From Terriglobia bacterium (GTDB lineage Bacteria > Acidobacteriota > Terriglobia > JAJPHL01 > JAPKYU01), in contig JBKKAI010000450.1 in NCBI GenBank assembly GCA_046714815.1, positions 1 through 30,479 of the forward strand: 30,479 nucleotides of DNA, read 5' to 3'. The first letter of the stretch is position 1, and the number at the start of each line of letters is the position of its first letter. Positions 8,600-29,226 of the stretch are shown one piece after another. The translations under genes and the position numbers were made by a program. The notes under the pieces were generated by a model, which saw nothing but the letters and a program-made list of their open reading frames with translations, did not search any database and was not told the DNA's origin.

Positions 8600-9719
8600 C
8601 CGGCGGGCGGAGGAGGATTTCGGCGATGCGGCGGCTGGCCTGGCCGTCGCCGTAGGGATTGTGGGCGCGGCTCATGCGCTCATAGGCGGCGGGGTTGTCC
8701 AGCAGCTCGGTGGCCGAGTCCACAATTTTTTCTGTGTCGCTGCCCACCAGTTTCACCGTGCCGGCCTCGACCGCCTCGGGCCGCTCGGTAACCTCGCGCA
8801 TTACCAGCACCGGCTTGCCCAGCGACGGCCCTTCTTCCTGGATGCCGCCGGAATCCGTCAGGATCAAGTATGCCGATTCCATCAGGCCGACGAATGGGAC
8901 GTAGGCAAGCGGCTCGATCAACTGTACGTTGGGCAAGCCGCCGAGAATTCGAGACACCGGCTCCCGCACGTTGGGGTTCAGGTGAACCGGATAAACCAGT
9001 TCGACGTCGGGGCGCTCCGCGATGCGGCGGAGCGCGCGGCAGATGCCCTCGAAGCCCTCGCCGAAGCTCTCGCGGCGGTGGCCGGTCACCAGCACCAGGC
9101 GCTTTTCCGGCGCGATCGGCCGCATGCCGGACGGCGCCGGCCAGCGCCCGCGGTACTTGTCGCAGGTGTAAAAAAGCGCGTCCACAACCGTGTTGCCGGT
9201 GACGAAGATGTGCGTATCCGGAACGCCTTCGCTGCGCAGATTGGCCGCGGCGCTTTCGGTCGGCGAAAAATGCAGGTCGGCCAGCGGCGATGTCAGCCTC
9301 CGGTTGATCTCTTCGGGAAACGGCCGCCGCTTGTCGAAAGTGCGCAGGCCCGCTTCGACGTGCCCCACGCGGATGCCCAGGTAAAAGGCCGCCAGCGCCG
9401 CGGCGAACACGGTGGTGGTATCACCCTGCACCAGCACGATGCCGGGGCGCTCATCCATCAGCACCGGGCGCAGGCCGGTGAGGCAGCGCGCGGTCAGGTC
9501 GAACAGGTCCTGGCCCGGCTGCATGATGTCCAGGTCGTAATCGGGCCGGATGGAGAAGGTTTCGAGCACCTGGTCGAGCATTTCGCGGTGCTGCGCGGTC
9601 ACACACACCGAGACGTGGAACTCGGGGCGCGCCCGCAGTTCGAGCACGACCGGAGCCAGCTTGATCGCCTCCGGCCGGGTCCCAAACACCAAGAGTACTT
9701 TTTCAACGGTCGGCTTCAC
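8580..9719 (-). CDS. wecB: UDP-N-acetylglucosamine 2-epimerase (non-hydrolysing)
   Basis: [52 protein letters not shown] and NPYGDG motifs. Start GTG 9719 is uncertain. Confidence 0.95.
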
Positions 9720-10413
9720 AAATGTAGCCCAGGGTGAAATCGCGCCGCCGGTCGAGGCCATCGCAGAAGTAGAGCAGCAGCGGGACCAGCAGGCCGAAAA
9801 ACGGCGCCAGCAGAACGAACAACGCCCATTTCAGGCCGCCCTGAAAGAAGCTGAGCAGGTTCACCGAGCGGCGGGCCATCAGCCAGAAAAAGCCGCCCAC
9901 CGCTTCCAGGCGGCGGACGCGGAAGCCGCTGCCGGCCAGCAGGTGGTCGAGGCCGTAGCGGGTATAACGGAAGTAGTCGTGCGGCGCCTGGTGCACCTCC
10001 CACTCCTGGGGGACCACCAGGAACAGGCGCCCGCCCGGGCGCAGGACGCGGGCGATCTCGCGCAATACTTTCATCGGCTCGCGCGTATGCTCGAGCACCA
10101 CGACGCTCAACGCCGCGTCGAAGGTGGCGGCGGCCAGGGGCAGGCTCTCCAGGTCGCCGCGCAGATCGAGCCGCGAATAGTTCCAGGCGGCGTCGCCAAC
10201 AGCATTGTCCAGCGCCAGGTAGCGATGCGCGGCGAACAGCCCGGCATAACGGCATTCGCCGGCGCCGGCGTCGAGCACGCGCGAGTTCGGCGCCAGCGAC
10301 GCGGCAAATCCGGCCAGCGCCTCATCGGCGCGCGTCTCAAACGGGTTGAGCGCGCGCAGCAGGAATCGGGGCAGCAGGCGCTGGGCGGCGCCGCGGACGC
10401 GCGGGTCTAGCAT
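9703..10413 (-). CDS. Class I SAM-dependent methyltransferase
   Basis: VLDAGAGE motif [21 protein letters not shown]; typical of glycan-locus methyltransferases. Confidence 0.85.
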
Positions 10414-11411
10414 TTGCGCGCCTCGATCATGATGGTGGCGCCGCGGCCGGCCAGCGCCTCGGCGGCGGCCAGCGGCAGCGCGGCAACGACCAGCGCGAAA
10501 TAGGCCAGGTCCAACGCCAGCCGCCAGGAGACACTCTCCCGGCGCCGCGCGCGCCGCGAAACCGGCTCGAGCCCCGGCGCCAGGCTGGTGGCCAGCGCCG
10601 CCGGATTATCGCGCAGGGAGAAATGCTTGAGGCGGCCGATGCGGAAACCGGATCTTTCCACCAGGCGCTCGAGGTCGGCGCGCCGGAAATTCACCAGGTG
10701 CCGCGGCACGTCGAAGCCGCTCCAGCGCCCGCCCAGGGCCGCCGTCTGCCAGCTTGCGGCGTTCGGGACCTGGACGATGAGCCGGCCCGAAGGCCGCAGG
10801 ACGGCGCGCGCGAAGGCCAGCGCCGCGGCGGGATCGGGAACGTGCTCAAGAAAATGAAACATGCTGACCGCGTCGAAGCTTTCGGCCGCCAGAGGCGCGG
10901 TATGATAGTCGCCGAGGACGGCGGCGATCCCCTGCCGATGGGCCGCTGCCAGCGCGGCCAGCGACGCATCCATGCCGCAGCAGGAGTAGCCGCGCTGCCG
11001 CAGCGCCGCCAGCAAGTCGCCCGAGCCGCAGCCGACGTCCAGGATGCGCGCCGGCGGCCTACCCAGCACGGAGGTGACAAAAGCCACGTGGTCGCCGAGG
11101 ACGGCGCGCCGGTAGAAGCCTTCCAGCCGCCGCGCGGCGCCGCCTTCCGAGCCGCCGCTCCACCAGTACCCCGGCGGGTAGTAGCCGGCCAGCTCCCGGC
11201 CGGCGGGGCGTGGAGAAAGATACAGCACTCCGCAGGAGGCGCATTCCACAATTTTGAACTGGCGCGTGGTGGTGCGGAACAAACGGTCGGAAGCGCGGAA
11301 GCGCGGGCGCTGCTCGCTCGAGCCGCACAGCGGGCAGTCGCCGGGCGCGGCGGCAGTTTCGCCGGCAGCAGCCGCCTCCGCTTTCGCGCCGCCCGCGGCC
11401 GGTTCGCTCAC
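10407..11411 (-). CDS. Class I SAM-dependent methyltransferase with N-terminal Cys4 (Zn-ribbon-like) motif
   Basis: CPLC...CASC, ILDVGCGSG, FHFLEHVPDP and DVPRHL motifs; GTGA overlap with the upstream gene. Confidence 0.85.
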   Translation of the reverse strand: MSEPAAGGAKAEAAAAGETAAAPGDCPLCGSSEQRPRFRASDRLFRTTTRQFKIVECASCGVLYLSPRPAGRELAGYYPPGYWWSGGSEGGAARRLEGFYRRAVLGDHVAFVTSVLGRPPARILDVGCGSGDLLAALRQRGYSCCGMDASLAALAAAHRQGIAAVLGDYHTAPLAAESFDAVSMFHFLEHVPDPAAALAFARAVLRPSGRLIVQVPNAASWQTAALGGRWSGFDVPRHLVNFRRADLERLVERSGFRIGRLKHFSLRDNPAALATSLAPGLEPVSRRARRRESVSWRLALDLAYFALVVAALPLAAAEALAGRGATIMIEARKC

Positions 11412-12457
11412 AAAGGCTCCGGAGCTTCGCGCACCGGAATTGTCTGGAAGGCCAGCTCACGGGCGCTGATGCGGAAGCGTCGCAGCAGCCGCAGAAACTC
11501 ACGGTCGGAGAGCTTGCGGGAGCGCCGGACCTGCCGGCGCTTGCGCCACATGGCGGGCAGGCCGGCCAACGCCTCCGCCCAGGCGTGGGACAGGGCGCGC
11601 AACATCGGCCACCAGCCGCGCGCGCCGGTGAAGGAACCGGCCTCGCCGCGGCCGCGGAGCGCCGCCAGCGCGCTGGCGCCCAGCCGAACAGCGACATAGA
11701 ACGGGTTTAGAAGCAGCAGCCCGGGCGGGAACAGTTTCAGGGCCAGCCAGGCCCGGTTGCGCTCCACCAGCACCAGGCGCCGCTCGGAGAATCGCCCGAG
11801 CGTCGAGGAGTGGTGATGGTAGACGACCGCGGCGGGCATGTACATGCATCGCCAGCCGGCCAGCCGCGCGCGCAGCCCGAGGTCGGCGTCATCGCCGTAG
11901 GCGAAAAAATCTTCATCGAACATCCCGGCGCTCTCGAACACGCGACGGTCGTAGAGCGCGGCGCATCCGTCCGGCATCAGGACCTCTTCGGGGCGGTCGA
12001 ACTGGCCGTGGTCGGTTTGCCCGCATCCGCGGCCCCGGTTCTGGCCGTCGGGATAAATCAGGTGCCCGGCCTTGTCAATGACGTCGCGTGCCTCGTAGAA
12101 CAGGATCTTCGAGGCGCACATACCGATGTCCTCTGCCGTGCGCGCGCCGGCGAGCAACTCTTCCAGCCAGCGCGGTCCCGCCTCGGCGTCGTTGTTGAGC
12201 AGTGCGATGTAGCGGCCTCGCGCCTGGCGGATGCCCTGATTGTTGCCGCCGCAGAAGCCGCGGTTCTCGCTGTTGCGGATCAACACCGCCTCGGGGAATT
12301 CTTCGAGCACCATGGCCGGCGAGCCGTCCTCGGAGCCGTTGTCCACCACGATGATCTCGAAGTCACCGAGCGTTTGGGCGCGCAGCGAGAGCAGGCAGGC
12401 GCGCAGCAATTCGCGCCGGTTCCAGTTGACCACGACGGCGGAGAGAAGCGGGGTCAT
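11408..12457 (-). CDS. Glycosyltransferase family 2
   Basis: VVVNWN, VDNGSEDGS, NRGFCGGNN, LLNNDA, FFAYGDDADL motifs; start MTPLLS at 12457 in an ATGA overlap. Confidence 0.9.
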   Translation of the reverse strand: MTPLLSAVVVNWNRRELLRACLLSLRAQTLGDFEIIVVDNGSEDGSPAMVLEEFPEAVLIRNSENRGFCGGNNQGIRQARGRYIALLNNDAEAGPRWLEELLAGARTAEDIGMCASKILFYEARDVIDKAGHLIYPDGQNRGRGCGQTDHGQFDRPEEVLMPDGCAALYDRRVFESAGMFDEDFFAYGDDADLGLRARLAGWRCMYMPAAVVYHHHSSTLGRFSERRLVLVERNRAWLALKLFPPGLLLLNPFYVAVRLGASALAALRGRGEAGSFTGARGWWPMLRALSHAWAEALAGLPAMWRKRRQVRRSRKLSDREFLRLLRRFRISARELAFQTIPVREAPEPL

Positions 12458-13674
12458 CGCTGTCTGTTCTTGGTCACGAGTTCCCGGAACAACTGCTCGT
12501 AAGCGGAGGTGACCGCCTCCCAATCATACAGCCGGAGCGCGCGTTCGCGGGCGGCCTCGCCCAGGCGCCGGCGCTCGGCGGCGGCATCTTCGCCGGGCCG
12601 CAGCAGGTGGCGCATTTTCCCGGCGAGGTCGCCGGCCGAGTGGGTGAAGGCAATGCCGGCGTCGCCCGCCACTTCCCGGTTTTCCGCTGTGTCGAGGTAG
12701 AGAAAAGGAAGTCCCGCGGCCATGGCCTCCACCAGAGCCGGGTGCGTGCCGCCCACTTCGGTGGCATGGACGTAGGCCCGGGCGTGCGCGCGCAACTGGC
12801 TGTAGCCGGCGCCGTAGATCGCGCCGGGAAAGACGATGCGCGGATCGCGCGTCTCGCGGACGCTGCCGATGTAGCGAGAGGCGTAGGGCGCGTCACCGAC
12901 GATGGCCAGGCGAAGGCCGGCCGCCACGTTTTCGAAGGCCCGCACCACGAGCAGGGCGTTGTTCTCCGGCTCGAGGCGGCTGACGTAGAGCAGGTATTTG
13001 TCCGGCTCCAGGCCCAGCCGCTCGATCGTTTCGGTTCCCGTGTCCGCCGGCGGGCCGGCCCCATAGGGAATGAAGCGGAACTCCTTGCCGAATTTTTCCC
13101 GGTAGTAACGCTGGATATGGAGCGCGTCGGTGACCACGGTTGTGGGCATCCAGGTGGACAGCCATTCCGACAGCCGATAATAGGTCCGGCCAAGAAAATT
13201 CCATTTGCGGCGCAGGCGCTCGAGCCCGTCAACGTTCACTACCGTCGGCGTGCCCACCAGCCGCGGCATCCAGGAAAAGGCGCTGTTGGCCGCGTTGCAG
13301 ATCAGCGCCACCTCCACCGAAGGCATCCGGAACACCAGGTGCAGGACCGAGAGAAACGTGTGGCTGACCGTCTCGAAATACTTGTGGCGGATGGAGGGAA
13401 GAAAAATCAGCCCAACGCCGCGGTGCTCCGGCGTCACGGCCGGCCGGCAGCGGCCAAACCAGCGCTTCCCGCGCTGGCCGGCTGCCGGCCAGCGCGGAGC
13501 GCTGGTTGTGGCCAGAGCTTTCGCTTCGGGCGCCGCCGCGACGCTATGGGGGCGGCCGTAAACCCAGACGCGATGGCCACGGGCGGCCAGGCGCGCCGAC
13601 AATTCTTCGGCAAAGGTTTCAAAGCCGCCGTAAGCGGCGGGCACCCCGCGCGTACCCAGGATGGCGATGGTCAT
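12454..13674 (-). CDS. Glycosyltransferase family 4 (GT-B, DUF1972-like N-terminus)
   Basis: ILGTRGVPAAYGGFETFAEEL, NVDGLE, YVSRLEPENN and EVGGTHPALVEAMA motifs. Confidence 0.9.
   Translation of the reverse strand: MTIAILGTRGVPAAYGGFETFAEELSARLAARGHRVWVYGRPHSVAAAPEAKALATTSAPRWPAAGQRGKRWFGRCRPAVTPEHRGVGLIFLPSIRHKYFETVSHTFLSVLHLVFRMPSVEVALICNAANSAFSWMPRLVGTPTVVNVDGLERLRRKWNFLGRTYYRLSEWLSTWMPTTVVTDALHIQRYYREKFGKEFRFIPYGAGPPADTGTETIERLGLEPDKYLLYVSRLEPENNALLVVRAFENVAAGLRLAIVGDAPYASRYIGSVRETRDPRIVFPGAIYGAGYSQLRAHARAYVHATEVGGTHPALVEAMAAGLPFLYLDTAENREVAGDAGIAFTHSAGDLAGKMRHLLRPGEDAAAERRRLGEAARERALRLYDWEAVTSAYEQLFRELVTKNRQR
13452..13513. repeat. Near-perfect ~30-bp-arm palindrome inside the GT4 CDS
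   Basis: GGCCA-AACCAGCGCTTCCCGCGCTGGCCGGC t GCCGGCCAGCGCGG-AGCGCTGGTT-g-TGGCC; the arms pair apart from two small bulges. Confidence 0.85.
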
Positions 13675-13696
13675 TCACGGCTGGGGCCGGCTTCGC

Positions 13697-14779
13697 TCAT
13701 CGGGAAACGCCGAAGCGGGGCCGGGACCCGGTGGCGACCGAAAGGACCGGCTGCTGCGGCGCCGGGAAAGTCACCGGACGGAAGCGGAACCAGCGGGCCA
13801 GCTCGCGGTCGGGCACCCGGCGGCGCTGCTGGATCCAGCGGCGCTTGCCCATCGCGCGCGGCCAGGCTTCGCCCAGGAGCCGGAAGGCCTTCAACGAGCT
13901 GTGTTCCACCAGGAGGCAGTAAAACAATACTCCCACGTCGCGGACGGTGATAGGCAGCAGATTTCGCAGGTAAAGCGAAGTGCCGGCGTTTTTCAGGCGC
14001 ATCAGGAACCGGTTTTTCACCGAGTGCATGTTGATTTCGGCCGGCAGTTGGGCGCGGTTCCAGGATTGCACCGTGCGAACGTGGTAGCCGATGGCGTCGG
14101 GCAGGTACAGGCATTTCCACCCCAGCAACTGGGCGCGCCAGGCGACATCGGCGTCCTCACGATAGGTGAAAAAATCAGGGTCGAAGAACTCACCTTCGAA
14201 ACTGAGGTCTTCAATCATCTCCCGGCGGTAGAGCGCGGCGGCGGCCGAGGCGCCAAAAACGTATTCGGGGTTCTCATATTTGCCGTTGTCCGGCTGTCCC
14301 GAGCCGCGGTCGAAGTGGCGCAGCGTGGGCGTGAAGTACATGCCCGCCGAATCCACGACGCGGCGCGCGGGAACGGTCATGTCCTCGGCCAGTCCCAGCA
14401 GCTTGCCGCAGAGGACGCCGATTCGGGCATCGTCGCCGGTCCCTTCGCCGCCGGCCATTCTTTCGGCTGCTTCAACCAGGTGGCCCACAAACCCGGCGGT
14501 CAACTGCACGTCCGGGTTCAGCACCAGCACCCACCTGCCCGATCCGGCGGCGATCGCCTGGTTCTGCGCGGCGGCAAAGCCGGTGTTGCGCTCGTTCAGG
14601 ATCACCTGAACCCGATCTCCGTAACGGGCCAGGGTGTCGCGCGTGGCGTCGCTCGATGCGTTATCCACGACGATCACTTCCAGCCGCGGATACTGTTGGG
14701 CGAAGACGGACTGCAGGCAGCGGTCTATGAATCGCCCGCTATTGTAAGTGACGAGGGTAACGCTAACGAGTGGTGGCAT
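13697..14779 (-). CDS. Glycosyltransferase family 2
   Basis: VTYNS, VDNASSD, NTGFAAAQN, LNPDV and YREDADVAWR motifs. Confidence 0.9.
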   Translation of the reverse strand: MPPLVSVTLVTYNSGRFIDRCLQSVFAQQYPRLEVIVVDNASSDATRDTLARYGDRVQVILNERNTGFAAAQNQAIAAGSGRWVLVLNPDVQLTAGFVGHLVEAAERMAGGEGTGDDARIGVLCGKLLGLAEDMTVPARRVVDSAGMYFTPTLRHFDRGSGQPDNGKYENPEYVFGASAAAALYRREMIEDLSFEGEFFDPDFFTYREDADVAWRAQLLGWKCLYLPDAIGYHVRTVQSWNRAQLPAEINMHSVKNRFLMRLKNAGTSLYLRNLLPITVRDVGVLFYCLLVEHSSLKAFRLLGEAWPRAMGKRRWIQQRRRVPDRELARWFRFRPVTFPAPQQPVLSVATGSRPRFGVSR

Positions 14780-15724
14780 TCAGACCGTTTTGGGCGGCGT
14801 GCGGTTTGCCGGTCCCGTGAGCGCCAACTTCATCACCGCCCAATAAGCGCTCCAGGAGCGCGTTCCACCGGGCGCAAATAACGCCGCAAACATCCGGATG
14901 GAAACGCCGACACATGTAAGGGCCCTCATTGCCGGCGCGGCGGTAGAACCCATGTTCTTCTGCACGTAGCAGAAAAGATTACGGTACCAGAAAAACTGTT
15001 TCTGGGCAAATGAGATACGCGCCAGGGAATGGGCGCCCCGGTGGCGCCAGCGGGAGGCGGGGCACAAAAGTATCCGAAAACCCGCCCGGCGGAGCCTCAG
15101 GCACAGGTCTACGTCCTCAAACCACAGAGGATAAAAGACTTCGTCCCAGCCGCCGATCTGTTCCAAGGCCTCGCGGCGCACCAGCAGGCAGGCCCCGGCG
15201 GGTTGCTCGACGTCTATGGTGCGATCCAAGGGCACTCTCAGGCAGCGGTAACGACGGTTCACCGGGTTGGCGGGCCACAGGCGATTCACCAGCAGTACTT
15301 CGAACGCCAGCGCCGCAAAGCCGGGCAGCGCGCGCACCGTGAATCCAACCTGCGGGCGGCCGTCACCATCCACCAGCAGGCCGGCGGCGGCGCCTGCACC
15401 GGGAGCCGCCTCGATCGTCCGGACAAGGTCTTCGAAGCCTTTTTCGAGAACCGCGTCGGGGTTGAGGAACAGCACATACCGCGCGGCGGCAGCGGCGGCG
15501 CGCGCGCCCTGGTTGGCGGCCGCGGCAAAGCCCCGGTTCTCGCGGTTGGCAATGACCCGAGCTCCGCCTTCCATTGCTACGGCCACAGTTTCGTCGCTCG
15601 ATCTATTATCCACGACGATGATTTCGGCGCCGGTATCGCGCAAGGATTCGAGACACGTTGCGATGTGCCCGGCTGAGTTATAGGTGATGATGATGACGGA
15701 GACGGGGATGTCAGAGGCAGGCAC
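14780..15724 (-). CDS. Glycosyltransferase family 2
   Basis: ITYNS, VDNRSSD, NRGFAAAAN, FLNPDA, QPAGACLL and WFEDVDLC motifs. Confidence 0.88.
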   Translation of the reverse strand: MPASDIPVSVIIITYNSAGHIATCLESLRDTGAEIIVVDNRSSDETVAVAMEGGARVIANRENRGFAAAANQGARAAAAAARYVLFLNPDAVLEKGFEDLVRTIEAAPGAGAAAGLLVDGDGRPQVGFTVRALPGFAALAFEVLLVNRLWPANPVNRRYRCLRVPLDRTIDVEQPAGACLLVRREALEQIGGWDEVFYPLWFEDVDLCLRLRRAGFRILLCPASRWRHRGAHSLARISFAQKQFFWYRNLFCYVQKNMGSTAAPAMRALTCVGVSIRMFAALFAPGGTRSWSAYWAVMKLALTGPANRTPPKTV

Positions 15725-15742
15725 GCGCGGCGCTTCCTTCGC

Positions 15743-16882
15743 TTATTTCGCGTTCCGCATCCCGCATTCCGCGCCGGCGGCCGGTTCCGTCGCGGCGGGG
15801 AACAGCCGGAAATACAGCCGCCAGAATGTGTCGAGGTGGGCGCGGTCGGCGTAAATCTGCGCTTCCGAGGCCCGCAGCAACTCCAGCATCCGGCCGGGAG
15901 AGCCGGATGCCGGGCCGCCGTCGGGGAAACGCCAGTGACGCACCCGGGGCAGGCGTGCGGCGGCGATAGCCAGGCCGCGCAGCCAAGCCAGGCCGCGCCC
16001 TCGAAGCAGCAACCGCGCCGCCCACAGGGCCTGCACCACCACCACGCGCGGCAGCACCACGCGCAGCGTGCCGCGACGCGCGTACCGCGCCGCCAGCAGA
16101 AGCTGGTGCGCGGTGATCCAGGCCGCCACGCGCGGATGCAGTTCCGCGGCGCGGCCCTTCCCACCACCTTTTACAGGGCCACCACCTTTTACAGGAGAAG
16201 ACGCGCTGACTTCGTGCCAGGCCACCGCCTCCGGGATGTACCGCGCCTGGAAGCCGGCCAGTTGCGCGCGAAGGCAGAAATCGGCGTCTTCGAGGTAGGC
16301 GAAAAAAGCCTCCTCGAAGCCGCCGACGCGCCGGAACACTTCGCGGCGGATCAGGCAGGCGGCGCCGGAGACGGCCAGCACCGCGCGCTCGCGGCGGCGG
16401 GACGGACTGTCGGGCCGGCCGTAGCCCAGCCGCGCCGCGGCAAAGCCCAGCGAAAGCGCATCGCCCGAGCCATCCACGAGCGGCACATCGCTCTGTTCCC
16501 GCGGCGTGTTGTTTCCGCCCGAACCAATCAGGATCGTTCCCGTGACCATGCCGCACTCCGGATGGGCATCGAGCGCCGCCTCCAGCCGCGCCAGCCACTC
16601 CGGATCGAGCGTCGCGTCGTTGTTGATGACGGCGACGAACTCCGAATCGCTCCCGGCCACGCCGCGGTTGACCGCCGCGGCGAACCCCAGGTTACGCGGC
16701 AGGCGGACGACGCGCGCGCCGGCGCGGGCGGCCGCTTCGGGCGAGCCGTCGGTGGAGGCGTTGTCGGCCACAATAATGTCGGCCGCCGCTCCCCGCTGCG
16801 CGGCAAGCGACGCGATCGAGCGCTCCAGCCGTCCCTGCCCGTTCCAGTTGGGAATCACCGCGGCCGTCCGCACGCGGCTCAT
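15743..16882 (-). CDS. Glycosyltransferase family 2
   Basis: IPNWNG, ADNASTDGS, NLGFAAAVN, INNDA and YLEDADF motifs; start MSRVRT at 16882 in an ATGA overlap. Confidence 0.88.
   Translation of the reverse strand: MSRVRTAAVIPNWNGQGRLERSIASLAAQRGAAADIIVADNASTDGSPEAAARAGARVVRLPRNLGFAAAVNRGVAGSDSEFVAVINNDATLDPEWLARLEAALDAHPECGMVTGTILIGSGGNNTPREQSDVPLVDGSGDALSLGFAAARLGYGRPDSPSRRRERAVLAVSGAACLIRREVFRRVGGFEEAFFAYLEDADFCLRAQLAGFQARYIPEAVAWHEVSASSPVKGGGPVKGGGKGRAAELHPRVAAWITAHQLLLAARYARRGTLRVVLPRVVVVQALWAARLLLRGRGLAWLRGLAIAAARLPRVRHWRFPDGGPASGSPGRMLELLRASEAQIYADRAHLDTFWRLYFRLFPAATEPAAGAECGMRNAK
15745..15772. repeat. Heptamer tandem array (consensus ATTCCGC x4) over the 3' end of a GT2 gene
   Basis: ATTTCGC GTTCCGC ATCCCGC ATTCCGC; encodes the C-terminal ECGMRNAK. 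Confidence 0.7.
16161..16195 (-). repeat. 18-bp-period tandem duplication, in-frame (PVKGGG x2)
   Basis: CCACCACCTTTTACAGG at 16161-16177 and 16179-16195. Confidence 0.85.
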
Positions 16883-17553
16883 CGCGCGAACCTCTTCTTC
16901 AGCAGAAAAAGCAGGTTGCGCATGCCGTCGCGCCACGGCTGCAGCTTCTTCTCGCCCACGCGCGACGAGTAGTTGATGAAGATCTCGCGAAACCGGATCC
17001 TCCGGTTGAGGATGGCCTCCACTTTGATCTCTTCGCTGAAAGCCATGCCGTCGCTTTCCAGCTTCATCAGCGGCAGGATGTGGCGGGAGAAGACCCACAT
17101 GCCCGACTGCGAGTCGCGCACCCAGCGGAAAAACAACAGCGACATGGCCAGCGAAAGCACCCAGTTGCCGAACATGTGCTTGAAGCTCATGGCCTCGGCG
17201 TCCTGGACCGGGAAGCGCGAGGCATTGAGGAAGTCGGCGTTGAGATGCTGGAAGGCTTCGAGCAGGTAGGAAAGCGCGTCCACCGGGTAGGAATGGTCGC
17301 CGTCGAGGGTGATGATGATGTCGCCGGTGGCGTGGCTGAAGCCGCGCTTATAGGCCCGGCCATAGCCGCGAATGTCTTCGTGGACCACCAGCGCTCCGAG
17401 CGAGCGGGCCACGTCCGGGGTGCGGTCGGTGGATCCGTTATCAACCACGATCACTTCATCCACCAGGGACGGCATGCTTTTCAACACCCGGCCGATGCCC
17501 TCTTCTTCGTCCAGGCAGGGAATGATTACGGTGATGCGCTTGTCTTTATACAT
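16879..17553 (-). CDS. GT2, DPM1-like polyprenyl-phosphate glycosyltransferase
   Basis: IPCLDEE, VDNGSTD, RGYG.A, TLDGD and DSQSGMW motifs; start MYKDK at 17553. Confidence 0.88.
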   Translation of the reverse strand: MYKDKRITVIIPCLDEEEGIGRVLKSMPSLVDEVIVVDNGSTDRTPDVARSLGALVVHEDIRGYGRAYKRGFSHATGDIIITLDGDHSYPVDALSYLLEAFQHLNADFLNASRFPVQDAEAMSFKHMFGNWVLSLAMSLLFFRWVRDSQSGMWVFSRHILPLMKLESDGMAFSEEIKVEAILNRRIRFREIFINYSSRVGEKKLQPWRDGMRNLLFLLKKRFAR

Positions 17554-17571
17554 CCGGCAGCGGGAAAAAAT

Positions 17572-18012
17572 AACCACCAAGACACCAAGACACCAAGAAA
17601 ACTACAAAACGATTCTCCGAATACCCGCCTTGATCAACGGCACGTTGAAATTGATCAAAAGGCCGATCCGATGTCCGGTCATTTTCAAGTAGGTCAGCAC
17701 CTGGGCCTCGTGAACGGGCAGGAGCGCGTCAATCGCCTTGATCTCGACGATGACACAGCTCTCGACGACGAGGTCCAGCCGAAGGCCGCCGTCAATGCGG
17801 ATTCCATCGTAGAGAATCGGAAGACAAAGCTGACGCTCGACGGCTAGATTGTGCTTCTTCAGTTCGTGGAACATGCAAATCTCGTAGACACTCTCTAGAA
17901 GTCCGGGTCCTAGCTGCGAATGGACTCGATATGCCGCGTCAACGACGAGTTTCGCGACCCGATCCACGCTTTCCGAGACCGGCTCTCTTGGTGTCTTGGT
18001 GCCTTGGTGGTT
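17572..18012. mobile_element. Candidate cassette: GxxExxY gene bounded by a 27-bp inverted repeat made of 8-bp units
   Basis: Left arm AACCACCAAGACACCAAGACACCAAGA (17572-17598). Right arm TCTTGGTGTCTTGGTGCCTTGGTGGTT (17986-18012), whose reverse complement matches the left arm 26/27. Interior is about 55% GC by hand count versus about 70% in a sampled flanking GT line. Mobility is inferred, not shown. Confidence 0.6.
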
Positions 18013-18015
18013 CAT
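17602..18015 (-). CDS. GxxExxY protein (PD-(D/E)xK nuclease-like, PDDEXK_3 family)
   Basis: LGPGLLESVYE signature and RLDLVVE..IVEIKA (D...ExK intact); 137 aa. Confidence 0.93.
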   Translation of the reverse strand: MNHQGTKTPREPVSESVDRVAKLVVDAAYRVHSQLGPGLLESVYEICMFHELKKHNLAVERQLCLPILYDGIRIDGGLRLDLVVESCVIVEIKAIDALLPVHEAQVLTYLKMTGHRIGLLINFNVPLIKAGIRRIVL

Positions 18016-18055
18016 TTTCCTACCGGACTTCCGTGCAGGCCTCGCCGGAAGCCCG

Positions 18056-18733
18056 CTACGGATTCTGCTTTCGCGGGGGAGCCGCTTTCTGTGCCGCGGA
18101 CGCGCCGGCTTTGCCCGCCGGGGCGGCTTTGCCTGCCGGGGCGGCTTTGCCTGCCGGGGCGCCGCGTCCCTTCTTACCCGCCGGTGGATCAGAGGGCATC
18201 AGCCTCCGAATCGTGGCTTCCAGGTTGCCTTCCAGGCTTCCGAACCACTCCTGGTTACCAGCCATGTCCGGGTCGCGCTCCTCGAGGATCTTGCCGTCCG
18301 GCCCGACGAAAAAAAACGTCGGCACGTGGTATTGCGGCCGGGCCGGCCCAATTCCCAGGTAGTTGATGGCCACGATGCGGTCGCCGATTACCACCGGGTA
18401 AGTGACCCCATGGTCCTTGTCGGAGGTGTATCTTCGGATGGCGTCCAGCGCGCGGGCCGGCGCTTCGTCGGTGACGTAGATGCCCACCACTTCAAACTTT
18501 TGGTTGCCGAACTCTGTATAAAGCTTCTGCATAACGCGGCCCGCGCGTTGGCAGACCGGTCAGGTGGGCGAAAGAAACTCCACCACCACGAACTTCCCGC
18601 GCAGGCTGGAAAGAGTGATCTGCTTTCCGTCGGGCGTCGGCAGGGTGAAATCGGGCGCATTGCGGGCGAGGGCAGCGGGCGCCGCCAGCAACACGGCCAG
18701 GAGCGCGGACGAAAAAAAGCGGTGTTGGTTCAT
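18056..18733 (-). CDS. Secreted TlpA/ResA-like thioredoxin-fold protein, predicted selenoprotein (U58-P-V-C)
   Basis: ATG 18733 (ATGA overlap with the upstream stop) gives a signal peptide, then APDFTLPTPDGKQITLSSLRGKFVVVEFLSPT-TGA-PVC. The TGA (18562-18560) is in frame with the ORF-track fragment 18056..18532. 225 codons. Confidence 0.85.
18107..18160 (-). repeat. 18-bp tandem repeat x3 encoding an APAGKA basic tail
   Basis: GGCTTTGCCYGCCGGGGC x3 on the + strand. Confidence 0.85.
18528..18553 (-). promoter_or_regulatory. Putative bacterial SECIS hairpin
   Basis: Downstream of UGA: UGC-C-AACGCG-[CGGGC]-CGCGUU-AU-GCA. The G-containing apical loop starts 17 nt after UGA. Confidence 0.6.
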
Positions 18734-21228
18734 AGGATCCTCGGAGAAGCGGCCACCAGCAAATGATTTTCCGCCGGCGCCGGAGCGTGCGCCCGCAGCG
18801 CCTCCCGGTAAGCCTGCTCCAGGCGCTTCAAGACGACATCCCAGTCCCAGCGCTCCTCCGTGGTGCGGCGGGCGCGGCGGGCCAGGGCCTCGGCGCGTTC
18901 GGGGTTTTCCAGCAGTTCAATGATAACAGAGATGAACTGGCGGGCATCGTGCGCCAGCAGCAATTCGCCGCCGTCGTTCACGTCCAGCCCCTCGGCGCCC
19001 AGCGGCGTGGAGATCACCGGAATGCCCGCGGCGAACGCCTCCAGAATCTTCACGCGCACGCCGGAGCCGCTGAAAATCGGGCTGAGGAACAGGGCGTAGC
19101 GCGACAACACCTCGCGGATTTCCGGAACCATCCCCAGCAAACGGACTCCGGGGCGCCGGCACAGGGATTCCACCTCGGGCGTGGGATAGGCGCCCACCAC
19201 CATCAGATCCACCCCCGGCCGCGCCGCGCGCAGCGCCGGCAGCACGTCGTTGACCAGGAACCGAAGGCCGGCCAGGTTCGGCGGATGGCGGAAGTTCCCG
19301 ACAAACAGCAGCGTCTCCGGCTGGCGGCCACGGAACACCGGGACGTAATCGGCGGTGTCCACCGCGGTGCGCAGGGAGCCGCGGATGGGCGGCGCGCCGG
19401 GCCCGAGGAATGACTCGAGCAGGCGCCGCTCTTTTTCGCTGCACGTTTGCACCAGGTCCATGCGGCGCAGCAGGCGCAGCTCATAGCGCAGCGCGCGCAG
19501 CCACTCCACGAACATCTCGAGGAACGTGACCAGCGGCTGCGGCTGCGGCAGGGTCATCGGCTGGGTCAGCGCCTGCACCATGGCGCGGCGTACCGACTGG
19601 AAGTACACGTCGTGCTCGAAAAGAACCGTCGGCGTGTGCCGCCAGCCCCCGGCAAAATGGCCGAGCTGCGTGTATTCCACCTGCACCAGGTCAATCTGGC
19701 GCTCCCAGATCAGGCGGTGGACGCGCCGCTGGAACTCCGGACTCTGGAAGCAGCGCACCGAGTATGGCGTCAGGCCATGAAAATCCCGGTGCGGCGGAAA
19801 ATCGCGCAGCACGCACTCCACCGAGCGCACGTGACGTTCGAGCGCGCGGTTGGTCTCCACTTCTTCCGGGCGATCCACGAAAGCCAGGACGTGGACCTCG
19901 TGGCGGAGCGCCAGTGCCCGCACCGTCTGGTACATGAAGACGCCGCCGCCGTGCGTCGGCGGGTAGAGCGAGTAGGGGGACAGGAACAGGATGCGCAGGG
20001 GCCGCCCGGAATCGGGGTCCGCTGCGGCAGGCCCGGCGGGTAACCCCCCGGGCTCGCCGTCGCGCGCCGCCGCCGCGGGGTGGCCCTCTTCGCGTTTCGC
20101 CGGAAGCAGGAAGCGGTCGCGATAGAACGCCGCGAACGGGCGCCGCAAGGCTTCGGCGTCGTCCACGGCGGCCAGGCTGCGGGCGGTCCAGCGCCGCGCC
20201 AGCGCCCGCCCCCAGCCGCGCAGCGCGCCGAGGTAGCCGGGCAGCGTCGCTTGAGTTGCGCCGGTGGCCAGAGGGGACAGAACAGTGTTGGCGTACAGCA
20301 ACAGAAAATGCTGCGCCAGCCGGCTCCAGCAGTGAATGTTCTTCCACACCATCAGCGTGTGGTTCTTCTTCACGATCGCGTCAATCCGCTCGGGGGAAAA
20401 ACGCTTGCCGATCGTGGCGCGGTGCTCGTGGTGCACCACGGCGCGGGGCTGGTACAGCACCTGCCAGCCGCGCTTCCAGGCGTTGTAGGAAAGGTCCGCA
20501 TCCTCCACGTAGAAAGGATGGAACAGCCTGTCGAATCCGCCGAGCTCGAGGAACTTCGCGCGGTCGTACGCGGTGGAGCCGCCGCCGGCGTAGAAGGTGG
20601 GATAAGGCGCCGACACGTCCTCGATCAGGTGCCCGAAGCGAAAGAAGCCGCCCTCGAAGCGGCCCTCGGTCAGCCCGGTCTCTTCACGGCGCTTCCCCTG
20701 GTCGAGAAAAAATATCTGCGCGCTCACCGCGAACACCCCGGCGTCGGTAAAGCCTTCGAGCAGGCGCTCGAAGGCGTCCGGCTCAACGCGCATGTCGTTG
20801 TTCAGCACCACCACGACGCCGTTGCGCGCCGCGGCGACCCCGGCATTGTTGCCGCCGCCGAAACCGAGGTTGCTCTCCATCCGCAGCAGGCGAACGGAGG
20901 GGAATCGCCCACGCACCATTTCGGCGGTGCCATCGTCGCTGGCGTTGTCCACGACGATCACTTCGTTATGGGGGTGGACGGCGGCGGCCTCGACCACCGA
21001 GGGAAGGAATTTCTCGAGCAGTTCGCGGCCATTCCAACTCGGAATAACCACGCTGAGCGACTCGGGGCGCGTGAAGGCAGGGGGCGGAACGGGCTGCCCC
21101 GATGGGCGGCCGCGGCCCATCACCAGCCAGGCCAGGTCCACCAGCGCCAGGCTTGCTGCGTTCAGCAACAGCAGCGGCGGCAGAAGAAGCACCGCCGCAA
21201 GTGCCTCCAGCAGGCGCAGCAGGATCAC
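18730..21228 (-). CDS. Bifunctional GT2 + GT4 glycosyltransferase with hydrophobic N-terminus
   Basis: GT2 motifs: IPSWNG, VDNASDD, NLGFGGGNN, LNNDM, YVEDADL. Then a Pro/Ala linker and GT4 motifs: ILFLSPY, FVGNFRHPPN, GSGVRVKILEAFAAG. Confidence 0.9.
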   Translation of the reverse strand: MILLRLLEALAAVLLLPPLLLLNAASLALVDLAWLVMGRGRPSGQPVPPPAFTRPESLSVVIPSWNGRELLEKFLPSVVEAAAVHPHNEVIVVDNASDDGTAEMVRGRFPSVRLLRMESNLGFGGGNNAGVAAARNGVVVVLNNDMRVEPDAFERLLEGFTDAGVFAVSAQIFFLDQGKRREETGLTEGRFEGGFFRFGHLIEDVSAPYPTFYAGGGSTAYDRAKFLELGGFDRLFHPFYVEDADLSYNAWKRGWQVLYQPRAVVHHEHRATIGKRFSPERIDAIVKKNHTLMVWKNIHCWSRLAQHFLLLYANTVLSPLATGATQATLPGYLGALRGWGRALARRWTARSLAAVDDAEALRRPFAAFYRDRFLLPAKREEGHPAAAARDGEPGGLPAGPAAADPDSGRPLRILFLSPYSLYPPTHGGGVFMYQTVRALALRHEVHVLAFVDRPEEVETNRALERHVRSVECVLRDFPPHRDFHGLTPYSVRCFQSPEFQRRVHRLIWERQIDLVQVEYTQLGHFAGGWRHTPTVLFEHDVYFQSVRRAMVQALTQPMTLPQPQPLVTFLEMFVEWLRALRYELRLLRRMDLVQTCSEKERRLLESFLGPGAPPIRGSLRTAVDTADYVPVFRGRQPETLLFVGNFRHPPNLAGLRFLVNDVLPALRAARPGVDLMVVGAYPTPEVESLCRRPGVRLLGMVPEIREVLSRYALFLSPIFSGSGVRVKILEAFAAGIPVISTPLGAEGLDVNDGGELLLAHDARQFISVIIELLENPERAEALARRARRTTEERWDWDVVLKRLEQAYREALRAHAPAPAENHLLVAASPRIL

Positions 21229-22613
21229 GAGCCACTCCCGCGGCCGCGGTCCGAGGGCGGCACCGGACTCAGGCGCAGCTTCTTTCCGATGCGATACCAG
21301 CGCGAGCCAAAGATCTCGGCCAGCTCCGCGGCCAGCCGCGCCCGATCGGCATCGAGGCTGAGCGCCCAGGTGGTGCGCTCGTCGAACTCCAGTTGTAGCT
21401 TGAGCGCCCAGACGGTGCGCTCCTCGAACTCCTGCTGTAGCCTGGCCAACGCTTCGCGGGCCGCGCCGACATCACCCTCGAGCGAATGGGCCCAAGCGAC
21501 TTTGTTATCGAGCTCAGCCTGTAGTTCCTGCACGATTCCCGCCAGCCGCTGCCGCTCCTTCTCAATCTCGGTGGCCCATGCGGTGCGCTCCTCGATCTCG
21601 CGCGACCGTTCCGAAACCACCTGGCGGGCGCGATCCAGTTCTGTTTCGACGCCCTTCCCCCAGGCCACCGCCGCCTCGTGGTCGGTCTGCTGCTTTTGAA
21701 TGGTCTGATCGCGGGCCTCGATCTCCGCCTGCTGCTGCTCGGCCCATTGCTTGCGCTCGTCGAGCTCGCGTCGCGTTGTTTCCTGGTAGGCGGCCAGGTC
21801 CTGCTCCACTTTGCGGATGTGCATCTCGCGCTCGCGGAGCAGATTGCCCGCCGCGGGAACAAACACGAACGGCTCGATGACCGGCAGTGCTTGCCCTGAG
21901 GCGATCGCCACCAGGAAATGCGGCTGATCGCCGGCGACACTCGGAGCGAAAGCTCCGGGTTGCCCGGCGGGATACCCGCCGGGGCTGCCGGCGGCCGCGG
22001 CGAACCCGGCGCTTCCAACCGCTCCGCCGCGACACGCGGGATAGAAACTCACCGCGGCGGTATGGTTCTGGCTGAAAATCGCCCGCTCGGGAAAGATCGC
22101 TGCCAGCAGCGCGTCAAATTCTTCCCTGTCGTACTCGCGGGTATGAAACGGGTTGGTGTAGCCGCGTTCTTCCGAGTAGTAGCGCCGGTTGGGCGTGGAA
22201 ACCAGCAAACGCCCCGAGGGAGACAGCACCCGCCGGGCCTCGGTGAGAAATGCCGCCGCCGCGCTCAAATGTTCGATCACTTCGAAGGCCACCACCAGGT
22301 CATACTCGCTGTCGGCGAAGCCGAGTTTGAGGCAGTCGCCTTGCTGGAAGCGCAGGTTCGGAGCGGAATAGTGGGCGCGGGCGTAGGCCAGCGCTTCTTC
22401 GCTCAGATCCACACCGACCACTTCCACTCCCGGTCCGAGGCAGGCGAGTTGCGCCGCGCCATAACCGGAACCGCAGCCGGCGTCGAGAATACGCAGCGGC
22501 CGCCGGCTTCCGGCCAGGCGCGCGGCAAAGGCATAGCGGGCCAGGTGTTCGTTCCACAGGTCCGGTTCGACCCGCCCGGGGATGACTCGCTCGCCTGTAA
22601 ATTCGAAGTTCAA
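21225..22613 (-). CDS. Methyltransferase plus C-terminal coiled coil (WbdD-like cap/chain-length protein)
   Basis: FTGER..P, EHLARY, ILDAGCGSGYG, AFEVIEH, STPN and NPFH motifs, followed by a long heptad region; start codon TTG. Confidence 0.85.
   Translation of the reverse strand: MNFEFTGERVIPGRVEPDLWNEHLARYAFAARLAGSRRPLRILDAGCGSGYGAAQLACLGPGVEVVGVDLSEEALAYARAHYSAPNLRFQQGDCLKLGFADSEYDLVVAFEVIEHLSAAAAFLTEARRVLSPSGRLLVSTPNRRYYSEERGYTNPFHTREYDREEFDALLAAIFPERAIFSQNHTAAVSFYPACRGGAVGSAGFAAAAGSPGGYPAGQPGAFAPSVAGDQPHFLVAIASGQALPVIEPFVFVPAAGNLLREREMHIRKVEQDLAAYQETTRRELDERKQWAEQQQAEIEARDQTIQKQQTDHEAAVAWGKGVETELDRARQVVSERSREIEERTAWATEIEKERQRLAGIVQELQAELDNKVAWAHSLEGDVGAAREALARLQQEFEERTVWALKLQLEFDERTTWALSLDADRARLAAELAEIFGSRWYRIGKKLRLSPVPPSDRGRGSGS
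21942..21983. repeat. Two abutting REP-like hairpins inside the methyltransferase CDS
   Basis: CGGAGC-GAAA-GCTCCGGGTTGC (21942-21963) and CCCGGCGGG-ATA-CCCGCCGGG (21963-21983). Confidence 0.75.
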
Positions 22614-22622
22614 CGTTGCTGC

Positions 22623-23924
22623 CTACCGGCGGCTGGCTGCCAGGCGGACTCCGTGGATCTCGACGCGGCAGGGCATGCGGAAATGGCCGTACATTTCCCG
22701 GCGCTTCTCCATCTGCAGCGTGACCGCGTTGTCAATCCAGTCGCACATTTCGTAGCCTTCGAGTGTGCCGTTGGCGACGGCCGGAGAAAATGAAAAATGG
22801 CCGGGGTAAAGCTCCGGCAGCGTCACCTGGAAATCCACCGTCAGGGTGTCGCCGGGCTCGAGCGGCGGCATCGCGACACTTTCCATCGCCGTGTTGGTGC
22901 CGGAAAAATCCACGCCCAGGTGGTTGCGCAGCATGAAGCCGACGATGGGCAGCGGCGTGGGCTGCTCGGCGCGGATGCTGATGCGCACGGTGACCAGTTC
23001 GCCGGGCGGCAGCAGCCCCAATTCCTCGCCGGCGGGATTGAGGACCGCAATGCCCAGCAGGCGGGCGCGCCCGGTCCCGTAGCGGAAATCCACGTTGGGG
23101 ATTCTTTCGACAAGCTGGGGAGCGTGCAGGGCGTAACCGCGGCCCTGCGCCGCCGCTTCGGCCGCCGCGTGATGGCGCAGATACTCGGTGTCCTTGTTCA
23201 CCATGGCCGCCTGGTAGCGGCTCACAACCCGGTCCGGGTCACCGATCTCGGCGACCCGCCCGCCGGCCATCCACAGCGCGCAAGTGGCCAGGCTCTTGAC
23301 GTCGGCCACACTGTGCGTCACGAAGATGATGGTAACGCCGGCGCGGTGCATCTCGTGGATCTTGCGCATGCAGCGCTGGCGGAAATAAATGTCGCCCACG
23401 GCCAGCGCCTCGTCCACCAGCAGGATCTCCGGGTCCACGTGGATGGCCACGGCGAATGCCAGGCGCACCGCCATGCCGCTGGAGTAGGTCTTCACCGGCT
23501 GGTCAATGAAGTCGCCGATTTCGGCGAAGTCGAGGATGGCCGGGTAGCGCCGTCCGATCTCGCGGTTGCTCAGGCCCAGGATGGCGCCGTTCAGGAAAAC
23601 GTTCTCGCGGCCGGTGAACTCGGGATTGAATCCCGAGCCCAGCTCGAGCAGCGCCGAGACGCGCCCGTTCACCCCGATCCGCCCGGATGTCGGCCGCAGA
23701 ATTCCGGCGATGAGCTGCAACAGGGTGCTCTTGCCGGCCCCGTTCTCGCCCAGGACGCTGAAAGTGGTTCCACGCTCGATCTCGAAACTGACCTCGCGCA
23801 GCGCCCAGAATTCCCGGTGGTACGAGCGCCGGCCGAAGGCCAGGAGCTCCTTCAGCCGGTCGGCCGGCCTGGTGTATACAGCGTAGCTCTTGCTGACACT
23901 TTCCAGAGTGACGGCCGCGCCCAT
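22623..23924 (-). CDS. wzt: ABC transporter ATP-binding protein Wzt with C-terminal Wzt_C domain
   Basis: GENGAGKSTLL Walker A, YSSGM signature, LLVDEALAVGD Walker B, plus a C-terminal beta-sandwich extension. Start MGAAVT at 23924 overlaps the wzm stop. Confidence 0.93.
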   Translation of the reverse strand: MGAAVTLESVSKSYAVYTRPADRLKELLAFGRRSYHREFWALREVSFEIERGTTFSVLGENGAGKSTLLQLIAGILRPTSGRIGVNGRVSALLELGSGFNPEFTGRENVFLNGAILGLSNREIGRRYPAILDFAEIGDFIDQPVKTYSSGMAVRLAFAVAIHVDPEILLVDEALAVGDIYFRQRCMRKIHEMHRAGVTIIFVTHSVADVKSLATCALWMAGGRVAEIGDPDRVVSRYQAAMVNKDTEYLRHHAAAEAAAQGRGYALHAPQLVERIPNVDFRYGTGRARLLGIAVLNPAGEELGLLPPGELVTVRISIRAEQPTPLPIVGFMLRNHLGVDFSGTNTAMESVAMPPLEPGDTLTVDFQVTLPELYPGHFSFSPAVANGTLEGYEMCDWIDNAVTLQMEKRREMYGHFRMPCRVEIHGVRLAASRR

Positions 23925-24739
23925 CAGAGCACGTCTCCAAAGGCGCGCTTGGTGTAGCGGAAGAACAGGCCGCCGGCGACAAACACCGTGGCCGCGAAGG
24001 CGGCGGTGACGGCCAGGTCGCCGAGCGCGGGCGCCCGGCCCGCCAGCAGGCAGGTGCGGTAGGCATCCACCACGTAGGCCAGCGGGTTGATTCGAGCGAT
24101 GAAGCGCAGGTTTTCCGGCAGCCGCTCGGCGCCAAAAAAAATCGGGGTGAACCAGAACCAGAACGTCAGCACGATCGAGAGCGCCTGTGCCGTGTCGCGC
24201 AGGAACACGTGCAGGCTCGAAACGATCCAGCTGACCCCGATGGTAAACAACGCGAGCAGGAACAGGTACACCGGCAACAGCAGCACGAACACGGTGATTT
24301 TCTTCACCAGGAAGGCGGAGATGGCCACCAGCACCAGCAGCCCCAAAAGGTGGTTCAGCATTCCGGAAAGGAACAGCGAGATGGGCAGCACCTCGGAGGG
24401 AAACATGGTCTTGGTGATGAGGTTGGAGTAATCCACCACCGCGGTCACCGAGCGCAAGACGGTATCGTGGAACAGCAGCCAGGGCAGGATGCCGGCGAAC
24501 AGGTAAAGGGCGAAGCTGTCGGTGCCCGATCCCGGCGCGGGTGGGATCTTGAAAACCAGCGAAAAAACAAACGTATAGCTCAGCAGCAGCACTGCCGGAT
24601 GCACCGCTCCCCAGAGCCATCCCAGCGCCGAGCCCACGTAGCGCTGCCGGAAGTCGCGGGCCACCAGGTTGCCGACCAGCGCCCGCCGCCGCAGGAGATT
24701 GGACGCAAAAGCCCGCCCCACTGTCAGGAAAAACGCCAT
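23924..24739 (-). CDS. wzm: ABC-2 type permease Wzm
   Basis: RDFRQRYVGS.LG.LW, GILPW, LITKTMFP, LRDTAQ, FTPIF and NPL motifs; multiple hydrophobic segments. Confidence 0.93.
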   Translation of the reverse strand: MAFFLTVGRAFASNLLRRRALVGNLVARDFRQRYVGSALGWLWGAVHPAVLLLSYTFVFSLVFKIPPAPGSGTDSFALYLFAGILPWLLFHDTVLRSVTAVVDYSNLITKTMFPSEVLPISLFLSGMLNHLLGLLVLVAISAFLVKKITVFVLLLPVYLFLLALFTIGVSWIVSSLHVFLRDTAQALSIVLTFWFWFTPIFFGAERLPENLRFIARINPLAYVVDAYRTCLLAGRAPALGDLAVTAAFAATVFVAGGLFFRYTKRAFGDVL

Positions 24740-27433: not shown

Positions 27434-27529
27434 GGAGGACGACGAGAATCTCCCCTGTGAACGGTCATTCTAATGAAAGCGGAGGCCGGTAGCAATGTCA
27501 GGAAACAGGGGGGTCGTTTCGCCGGCGGG

Positions 27530-28690: not shown

Positions 28691-28696
28691 GATCGT

Positions 28697-29152: not shown

Positions 29153-29196
29153 CAACTGAGGATAGCGCAGCCGCGGCCACGCCACAAGCGGGCGCG

Positions 29197-29226
29197 ACAG
29201 TAGGGGTCAGTAGCGGTCAGTAGCGG
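29197..29226. repeat. 10-bp tandem repeat x3 across the lexA stop codon
   Basis: ACAGTAGGGG TCAGTAGCGG TCAGTAGCGG. Confidence 0.7.

Follow-up and report, generated by a model that had tools for sequence, protein, structure and literature searches.

In this study we analysed a stretch of 30,479 nucleotides from the metagenome-assembled genome (MAG) of a Terriglobia bacterium (contig JBKKAI010000450.1 of assembly GCA_046714815.1, positions 1 to 30,479; hereafter the window), and found that a frame on its minus strand, at 18056-18733, very probably encodes a complete exported ResA/TlpA-like redox enzyme with selenocysteine (Sec) at its active site, which public gene calls have wrongly split in two. 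The evidence is drawn from sequence comparison: homologues carry either cysteine or TGA at the same codon, selection is purifying on both sides of the TGA, a hairpin resembling a selenocysteine insertion sequence (SECIS) follows it, and the source genome holds a tRNA-Sec and selD. A reading made earlier from the letters of the window (hereafter the sequence-only reading) had proposed a Sec-dependent thiol-disulfide oxidoreductase, and all of these results support it.

A reading frame interrupted once, at the active site

The frame consists of 225 codons followed by a TAG stop, starts at ATG 18733-18731 (-), and has a TGA at codon 58 as its sole interruption. The list of open reading frames (ORFs) made with translation table 11 gives the C-terminal part alone (18056-18532, minus strand, 158 aa). 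The sequence-only reading had noticed this truncation, had extended the frame upstream through the single TGA to an ATG overlapping the preceding stop codon, and had recognised in the product a signal-peptide-like N-terminus, a redoxin start APDFTL and the motif SPT-UGA-PVC; translation bears all of this out, and its coordinates were right throughout. The product reads MNQHRFFSSALLAVLLAAPAALA and then RNAPDFTLPTPDGKQITLSSLRGKFVVVEFLSPT-U-PVCQRAG, the redoxin start APDFTL leading through LSSLRGKFVVVEF to SPT-U-PVC. At the N-terminus, a charged n-region and a hydrophobic core are followed by a small-x-A motif that is kept among orthologues in front of R-N/K-APDF, and at the C-terminus all orthologues have basic tails of variable sequence. 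The tail of the window protein contains three tandem 18-nt units coding for APAGKA (18100-18160), and contigs from sequencing runs X3 and X4 differ from the window mainly at 18133-18158, which suggests strain-level variation in this repeat.

The window comes from a fragmented metagenome bin, as would suit a sequencing or assembly error concealing a true TGC or TGT, but such an error is scarcely conceivable here. Logan contigs of runs X1 (18434-18797) and X3 (18473-18668), which belong to two different studies and carry four differences and one difference elsewhere, respectively, leave 18560-18562 unchanged, and in other samples TGA recurs at six further loci with five distinct sequences. The runs with near-identical sequence were sediment, soil, groundwater and permafrost metagenomes, and none of the runs so listed was an RNA run.

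Cysteine or TGA at the same codon in orthologous genes

When the C-terminal part was used as query against the protein database, it matched a set of short gene calls, 109-158 aa long. Single-protein scans of genome and metagenome contigs gave no match, alignment-based contig scans returned Cys-type relatives only, and a scan of genome contigs for the DNA pattern around the UGA gave 12 matches, all due to chance and none with a redoxin frame. Cys-type orthologues were identified in six genomes of the same Terriglobia family (G001-G006; loci L012-L018 and L044-L051) and in one genome of the same order. They encode C-P-x-C with the Cys, coded by TGC or TGT, exactly at the position of the TGA (8 of 8 distinct sequences), and the flanks are conserved on both sides (VV.E upstream, CQRAG downstream).

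TGA stands at this same codon in L043, L064, L065, L066, L067 (to which L068 is identical) and L069, within the motif PT-U-P[V/Y/H]-CQRAG. These were counted as six other orthologous loci with five distinct sequences, or six distinct sequences together with the window. They come from different assemblies and samples, their proteins are about 55-71% identical to the window protein, and when read through, L043, L064-L067 and L069 each have an intact frame down to a TAG or TAA stop. One further gene call (P0002) begins MCQRAG and is therefore probably Sec-type; it was left out of the counts. It has been proposed that a gene be regarded as a selenoprotein gene rather than a candidate when its UGA is kept in at least two different sequences (PMC1088965), and here six sequences, the window included, share the TGA at this codon.

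Public gene calls split every Sec-type orthologue found into a 51-60-aa ORF ending in the TGA and a C-terminal ORF of 109-158 aa. This uniform splitting, together with the ATG at 18530-18532, is what a nonsense pseudogene or a truly split gene would offer in its favour, the frame ending at codon 58 and the downstream 158-aa ORF (ATG 18532) being either dead or made separately. Such a history is nevertheless very improbable. The TGA has been kept in six distinct sequences at a synonymous divergence (dS) of about 1-2; both halves show ratios of nonsynonymous to synonymous divergence (dN/dS) of 0.1-0.4 and have neither a frameshift nor a second stop; and the downstream start codon varies between the gene calls of the Sec-type orthologues. 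In addition, a separate C-terminal piece would lack both the nucleophile and two of the beta strands that make up the fold, and the hairpin described below is conserved in TGA-bearing genes only. By the NG86 method, dN/dS was 0.08-0.39 upstream of the TGA in all pairs with a computable dS, and 0.12-0.30 downstream over about 118 codons in all 21 pairs, with a partly saturated dS of about 0.6-2.3. By this comparison selection is purifying on both sides of the TGA, and the 3' part is not decaying. The sequence-only reading had expected homologues with TGC/TGT or TGA at codon 58 between conserved flanks, and had allowed for a misread TGC or TGT and for a 3' part under relaxed selection; the homologues are as expected, and neither the misread codon nor the relaxation was seen.

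A hairpin confined to the TGA-bearing genes

A stem-loop AACGCG-[CGGGC]-CGCGUU with a G-containing loop, beginning 11 nt after the UGA, had been pointed out in the sequence-only reading, and it is indeed present at 18549-18533: it is 17 nt long and separated from the UGA by 10 nt, so that it begins at the 11th nucleotide. The minimal SECIS of Escherichia coli fdhF is likewise a 17-nt stem-loop, 11 nt after the UGA. The complete hairpin of the window (Table 1) has a local minimum free energy (MFE) of -13.6 kcal/mol and a spacing of 16 nt from UGA to loop. The MFE fold of the whole region pairs the UGA itself and is not significant, and we did not accept it as the structure that matters here, since nucleotides immediately past the A site lie within the ribosome. 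A published model of the bacterial SECIS (PMC13188914, Fig. 2 legend) has an apical loop of 3-9 nt with a G within its first two positions, an upper stem of 4-16 bp, an MFE of -7.5 kcal/mol or lower and 16-37 nt from UGA to loop. The window hairpin agrees with this model, its spacing of 16 nt lying at the lower limit, and so do the hairpins of all the Sec-type genes.

An equivalent hairpin was found in 7 of 7 Sec-type sequences (6 distinct), with local MFE of -8.4 to -17.4 kcal/mol and loops GGC, GGU, GGG or CGGGN at 16-18 nt, and in none of the 8 distinct Cys-type sequences, in which the best model-compatible hairpins had energies of -6.4 to +0.1 kcal/mol. A Mann-Whitney comparison of the two sets of local folding energies gave p = 0.024, a value that ignores relatedness and is used descriptively only. 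The difference lies in synonymous sites. In Sec-type genes the QRAGR stretch is coded CGC-GCG-GGN-CGC-GUK, the sole freely varying third position being the N in the loop, whereas Cys-type genes with the same QRAGR peptide have CGC-GCC/GCU-GGC-CGC-ACN, which does not fold. In the RNAalifold consensus of the seven Sec-type sequences, compensatory changes occur at three pairs (U-A/C-G, G-C/A-U and G-C/C-G).

Part of the selenocysteine machinery in the source genome

The source genome is a Terriglobia MAG, 71% complete, whose 754 contigs total 3.85 Mb and contain 20 tRNAs. A tRNA-Sec was identified on C611:1521-1614 (78.5 bits against a gathering score of 47), with anticodon UCA, discriminator G73 and the canonical 8/5 shape, that is, an 8-bp acceptor stem and a 5-bp T stem, together with a 6-bp D stem and a long variable arm. 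About 240 nt away on the same strand is a Cys-type paralogue of the redoxin with the motif SCPVCQ (C611:1854-2210). selD was found at C77:5783-6611 (337 bits); no selenouridine synthase was found in the MAG, so the simplest explanation for selD is Sec synthesis. Of 15 genes checked within the redoxin operon and next to it, 10 end normally in TGA, and there is thus no global reassignment of TGA.

The redoxin is one of 6 among 13 AhpC-TSA matches in the MAG that carry a single TGA, always at the redox-active position. The other five (Table 1) have the motifs FTGG-U and WTAV-U (both of peroxiredoxin type), W-U-SC, G-U-TF and G-U-INC; these genes of AhpC-TSA/thioredoxin fold are probably further unannotated selenoprotein genes, with true TxxU peroxiredoxins on C724 and C668. 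Formate dehydrogenase was represented in the MAG by fragments only, none of them with TGA.

Several results weigh against Sec insertion at this codon. Most seriously, neither selA nor selB was found in the 71%-complete MAG by hidden Markov model search or by tblastn with the proteins of relatives; for selB, tblastn gave a generic GTPase match only, and even the EF-Tu-level match seen in every relative is absent from the MAG. selD is cut off by the end of its contig at profile position 37, which leaves the N-terminal Sec/Cys position of the protein unreadable in the assembly. As for the hairpin, the single-sequence fold of the window is no better than that of shuffled sequences (z = -0.99), the perfect upper stem by itself reaches only -5.8 kcal/mol, and orthologues have two stem registers, which makes the RNAalifold covariation term slightly unfavourable (+1.1). 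The window alone is therefore insufficient to settle the matter, and it is the comparison of Sec- and Cys-type genes that does so. We attribute the gap in selA and selB to the incompleteness of the MAG, but it is still the weakest point of the case; both selA (551-561 bits) and selB (308-341 bits) occur in four near-complete genomes of this family. Of the sel genes that the sequence-only reading had named for a search, selC and selD were thus found in this incomplete genome, and selA and selB were not.

The same gap could be taken to mean that the UGA is decoded as Cys or another standard residue, either by a SelC* tRNA-Cys or, selA having been lost, by a Ser- or Cys-tRNA delivered by SelB. 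SelC* tRNA-Cys(UCA) reading Sec codons as Cys is known in some anaerobes (Mukai et al., PMC5389517), although that study did not report SelC* genes from Acidobacteria. We consider such decoding improbable, since the tRNA of the MAG has G73 rather than the U73 needed by CysRS as well as the canonical 8/5 shape, selD is present, relatives have a complete selABD set, and this MAG is only 71% complete.

Protein class and fold

With the UGA read as Sec, the protein matches the Pfam families AhpC-TSA (3.4e-19) and Redoxin (2.2e-14), and among proteins of solved structure those closest in sequence are thiol-disulfide oxidoreductases of the ResA type (7.7e-12). An AlphaFold (AF2) model built with 10 input sequences has a confident core (predicted local distance difference test, pLDDT, 80-95 over residues 40-180) and a disordered tail (187-224). 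In this model residue 58 lies immediately N-terminal to helix 59-79, that is, at the N-terminus of helix 1. Each of the first 19 Foldseek matches is to ResA or to 4nmu, annotated as a ResA homologue, with TM of about 0.8 of target, and V137-P138, invariant among orthologues, aligns with the LPT of ResA in its cis-Pro loop. As modelled, the protein thus has a ResA/TlpA-like thioredoxin fold with (C/U)xxC at the N-terminus of helix 1.

Narrower assignments were tried and rejected, and no NCBIfam model reached its cut-off. ResA and TlpA proper scored 51 against a cut-off of 170 and 32 against 230, respectively, and orthology to either is not borne out by the neighbours, which are glycosyltransferases, methyltransferases and Wzm/Wzt rather than genes of cytochrome-c maturation or Sco/CoxB. 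The ResA-like WAxxUGC selenoprotein family (NF041054) gave 26.6 bits against a cut-off of 300, and its WAxxUGC motif is absent. A peroxiredoxin would have PxxxTxxC(U); despite the AhpC-TSA match above cut-off, the motif is S-P-T-U-P-V-C with the Thr adjoining U, that is, the dithiol-type UxxC and not the peroxiredoxin TxxC.

Origin of the Sec-type genes

A maximum-likelihood tree of 19 sequences placed the seven Sec-type proteins in one group (support 85/87; 86% of bootstrap trees) nested among Cys-type orthologues, with more distant Cys paralogues outside. If the root is placed on the outgroup side, this tree would be explained most simply by a single Cys-to-Sec change within a Terriglobia clade that already decoded Sec. 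Relatives with Cys at the codon-58 site still possess selA and selB, thus the Sec/Cys difference is gene-specific. The family would be a clear case, found in nature, of Cys recently giving way to Sec, in which a SECIS was carved from the synonymous sites of an unchanged QRAGR.

A conserved place in a polysaccharide operon

The operon (Table 1) runs in the order Wzm (23924-24739), Wzt with a Wzt_C domain, a methyltransferase, a fusion of glycosyltransferase domains of families GT2 and GT4, the redoxin, a PDDEXK_3 cassette, four GT2 genes, a GT4 gene, another GT2 gene, two methyltransferase genes and a UDP-GlcNAc 2-epimerase gene, and is an ABC-transporter-dependent polysaccharide pathway. The redoxin adjoins the GT2/GT4 fusion gene, 58-77% identical, in 19 of 19 orthologous loci, and the order GT2/GT4, redoxin, GT2 genes is kept in all 19 as far as the contigs reach, in Cys- and Sec-type loci alike and including the order-level relative. 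By gene calls the 4-nt overlap of ATGA type also occurs in L064-L069, and L043 has a 2-nt gap. The operon neighbours are 58-89% identical, compared with 37-71% for the redoxin. From this conserved order and these neighbours it follows that the redoxin is a stable member of the operon. The sequence-only reading had called the pairing with glycan synthesis unusual; the pairing is real and conserved, but it is a property of the whole orthologue family, Cys forms included, and is not specific to the selenoprotein. In one Cys-type locus (L017, G003:C486:1163-2406), two tandem redoxin copies with the motif CPHC, 43-48% identical to the window protein, follow the GT2/GT4 gene.

Table 1. Coordinates of the redoxin gene, its parts and associated features; positions are those of the window unless a contig of the MAG is named
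Feature	Location	Strand	Basis
Putative Sec-containing TlpA/ResA-like redoxin, complete coding sequence (225 codons + TAG)	18056..18733	-	frame translation, Pfam, top fold match ResA
In-frame UGA, codon 58, probably read as Sec; first position of U-P-V-C	18560..18562	-	alignment with Cys-type orthologues
ATGA start/stop overlap of redoxin ATG with TGA stop of upstream GT2/GT4 gene; translational coupling	18730..18733	-	
Predicted Sec-pathway (secretion) signal peptide, codons 1-23 (MNQHR + hydrophobic core + ALA; cleavage before RNAPDF)	18665..18733	-	read from sequence
Basic disordered Lys/Ala/Pro-rich C-terminal tail with three 18-nt tandem units (APAGKA)	18059..18175	-	translation; pLDDT <50, residues 187-224
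SECIS-like hairpin	18526..18555	-	local folding + comparison of Sec- and Cys-type genes
Hairpin, lower stem (5 bp)	18551-18555/18526-18530		
Hairpin, bulged C	18550		
Hairpin, upper stem (6 bp)	18544-18549/18533-18538		
Hairpin, loop CGGGC	18539-18543		
Upstream gene, GT2 + GT4 fusion glycosyltransferase, 832 aa	18730..21228	-	Pfam
Polysaccharide operon	8580..24739	-	Pfam
Other TGA-containing redox genes of the MAG	C724:3573-3941, C668:1313-1708, C46:123-473, C688:909-1220, C49:4-303		

The PDDEXK_3 (GxxExxY-type) gene at 17602-18015 (-) lies between the redoxin and the next GT2 gene and is flanked by inverted repeats of 33 nt that are composed of CACCAAGA units (17566-17598 and 17986-18018; 91% complementary). 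None of the 18 other orthologous loci has this gene, and in them the first GT2 gene (GT2a) directly follows the redoxin, so the cassette is an insertion specific to the window genome.

The UGA might truly encode Sec and yet have been selected mainly for a regulatory role, inefficient selenium-dependent read-through tuning the downstream glycosyltransferases. Bacterial Sec insertion competes with termination by release factor 2 (RF2), which would suit such tuning, as would the ATGA coupling to the upstream glycosyltransferase and the three GT2 genes close behind in all loci long enough. Against this, Cys-type orthologues hold the same operon position without a UGA, Sec would be the catalytic residue, which is also its place in other redox selenoproteins, and in the window the cassette with its own inverted repeats separates the redoxin from the next glycosyltransferase. 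We therefore regard a chiefly regulatory UGA as very unlikely, and prefer a catalytic Sec.

Beyond the redoxin and its neighbours, a 665-aa Wzt ORF (22623-24739) overlaps Wzm, with its ABC domain beginning at residue 274; the true start of Wzt is probably near 23930 and the long ORF an over-extension. Immediately upstream of the operon, and in the same orientation, is the gene of a TPR-GAF-GGDEF protein (24878-27433), possibly a cyclic di-GMP regulator of the polysaccharide. A LexA homologue lies at 29217-29891, and a 576-aa ORF at 27473-29203 (+) had no Pfam match.

Proposed mechanism and significance

In the mechanism that we propose, UGA 58 would be read as Sec by tRNA-Sec and SelB recruited by the hairpin 16 nt downstream, and the product would be exported through its predicted cleavable signal peptide. 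As in the ResA/TlpA family, the selenolate of U58 would attack a substrate disulfide, C61 would resolve the adduct to give a selenenylsulfide, and a CcdA/DsbD-type membrane reductant would return the enzyme to its reduced state. It may reduce or isomerise a periplasmic disulfide, the Sec form presumably being faster and more tolerant of oxidation in catalysis than the Cys orthologues, and its substrate may be tied to the assembly of the envelope polysaccharide. The K/A/P-rich basic tail might, speculatively, hold the enzyme on anionic envelope polymers. We suggest, as a tentative and rather unlikely extension, that the redoxin is a working part of the pathway, a tail-tethered periplasmic selenium-dependent reductase or isomerase that keeps a Cys-bearing export, ligation or acceptor component of the Wzm/Wzt system in the right redox state; if so, the output of surface glycan would depend on the redox state of the envelope and, in the Sec clade, on the supply of selenium.

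In the public gene calls found for this clade the gene is without exception broken into two meaningless fragments, and read-through restores an enzyme with its full active site. A survey of 2006 listed three selenoprotein families with four proteins in Acidobacteriota (PMC1794560). The redoxin would add a clade-specific selenoprotein to this phylum, in which the present MAG alone has at least six thioredoxin-fold candidates. A translationally coupled, presumably periplasmic redoxin with a fixed place in an O-antigen-like operon is an unusual and conserved association.

Comparison with known systems

The closest known systems by kind are the Prx-like thiol:disulfide oxidoreductase selenoproteins (UxxC/UxxU, PF00578) of Geobacter, Syntrophus and others (PMC1794560 Table 1, PMC13188914), with which the redoxin shares the AhpC-TSA/Redoxin match, a probable Sec as the first residue of UxxC, widespread Cys homologues and a probable bacterial SECIS directly 3' of the UGA. 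Judged by published descriptions, it is set apart from them as a separate orthologue group, so far only from uncultured Terriglobia, with SPT-U-PVC, a predicted signal peptide, a basic disordered tail and a fixed position in a polysaccharide operon. With ResA of Bacillus subtilis and TlpA of Bradyrhizobium it has in common the best match by sequence (ResA-type) and by fold (ResA), CxxC at the N-terminus of helix 1, the Pro of the cis-Pro loop and predicted extracytoplasmic targeting; it differs in having probable Sec for Cys and glycosyltransferase neighbours instead of cytochrome-c-maturation or copper-chaperone genes. The NF041054 (WAxxUGC) family and the UGC-containing TlpA family (cd02966; PMC13188914) are likewise selenoproteins of the TlpA/ResA fold, but the motif of the redoxin is T-U-P-V-C. 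Its own Cys-type orthologues, 37-54% identical to the window protein, share the operon place after GT2/GT4, the predicted signal peptide, the basic tail and mostly QRAG, whereas they have C-P-x-C and no hairpin past that codon. In the tree they are a paraphyletic set, and the Sec clade branches from among them. UxxC redoxins of PF00578 are thus an already documented kind of selenoprotein, as are TlpA-like forms (PMC1794560, PMC13188914); what is new here is the orthologue group and its lineage, its consistent public mis-annotation, and the contrast between Cys and Sec forms with a SECIS built from synonymous sites.

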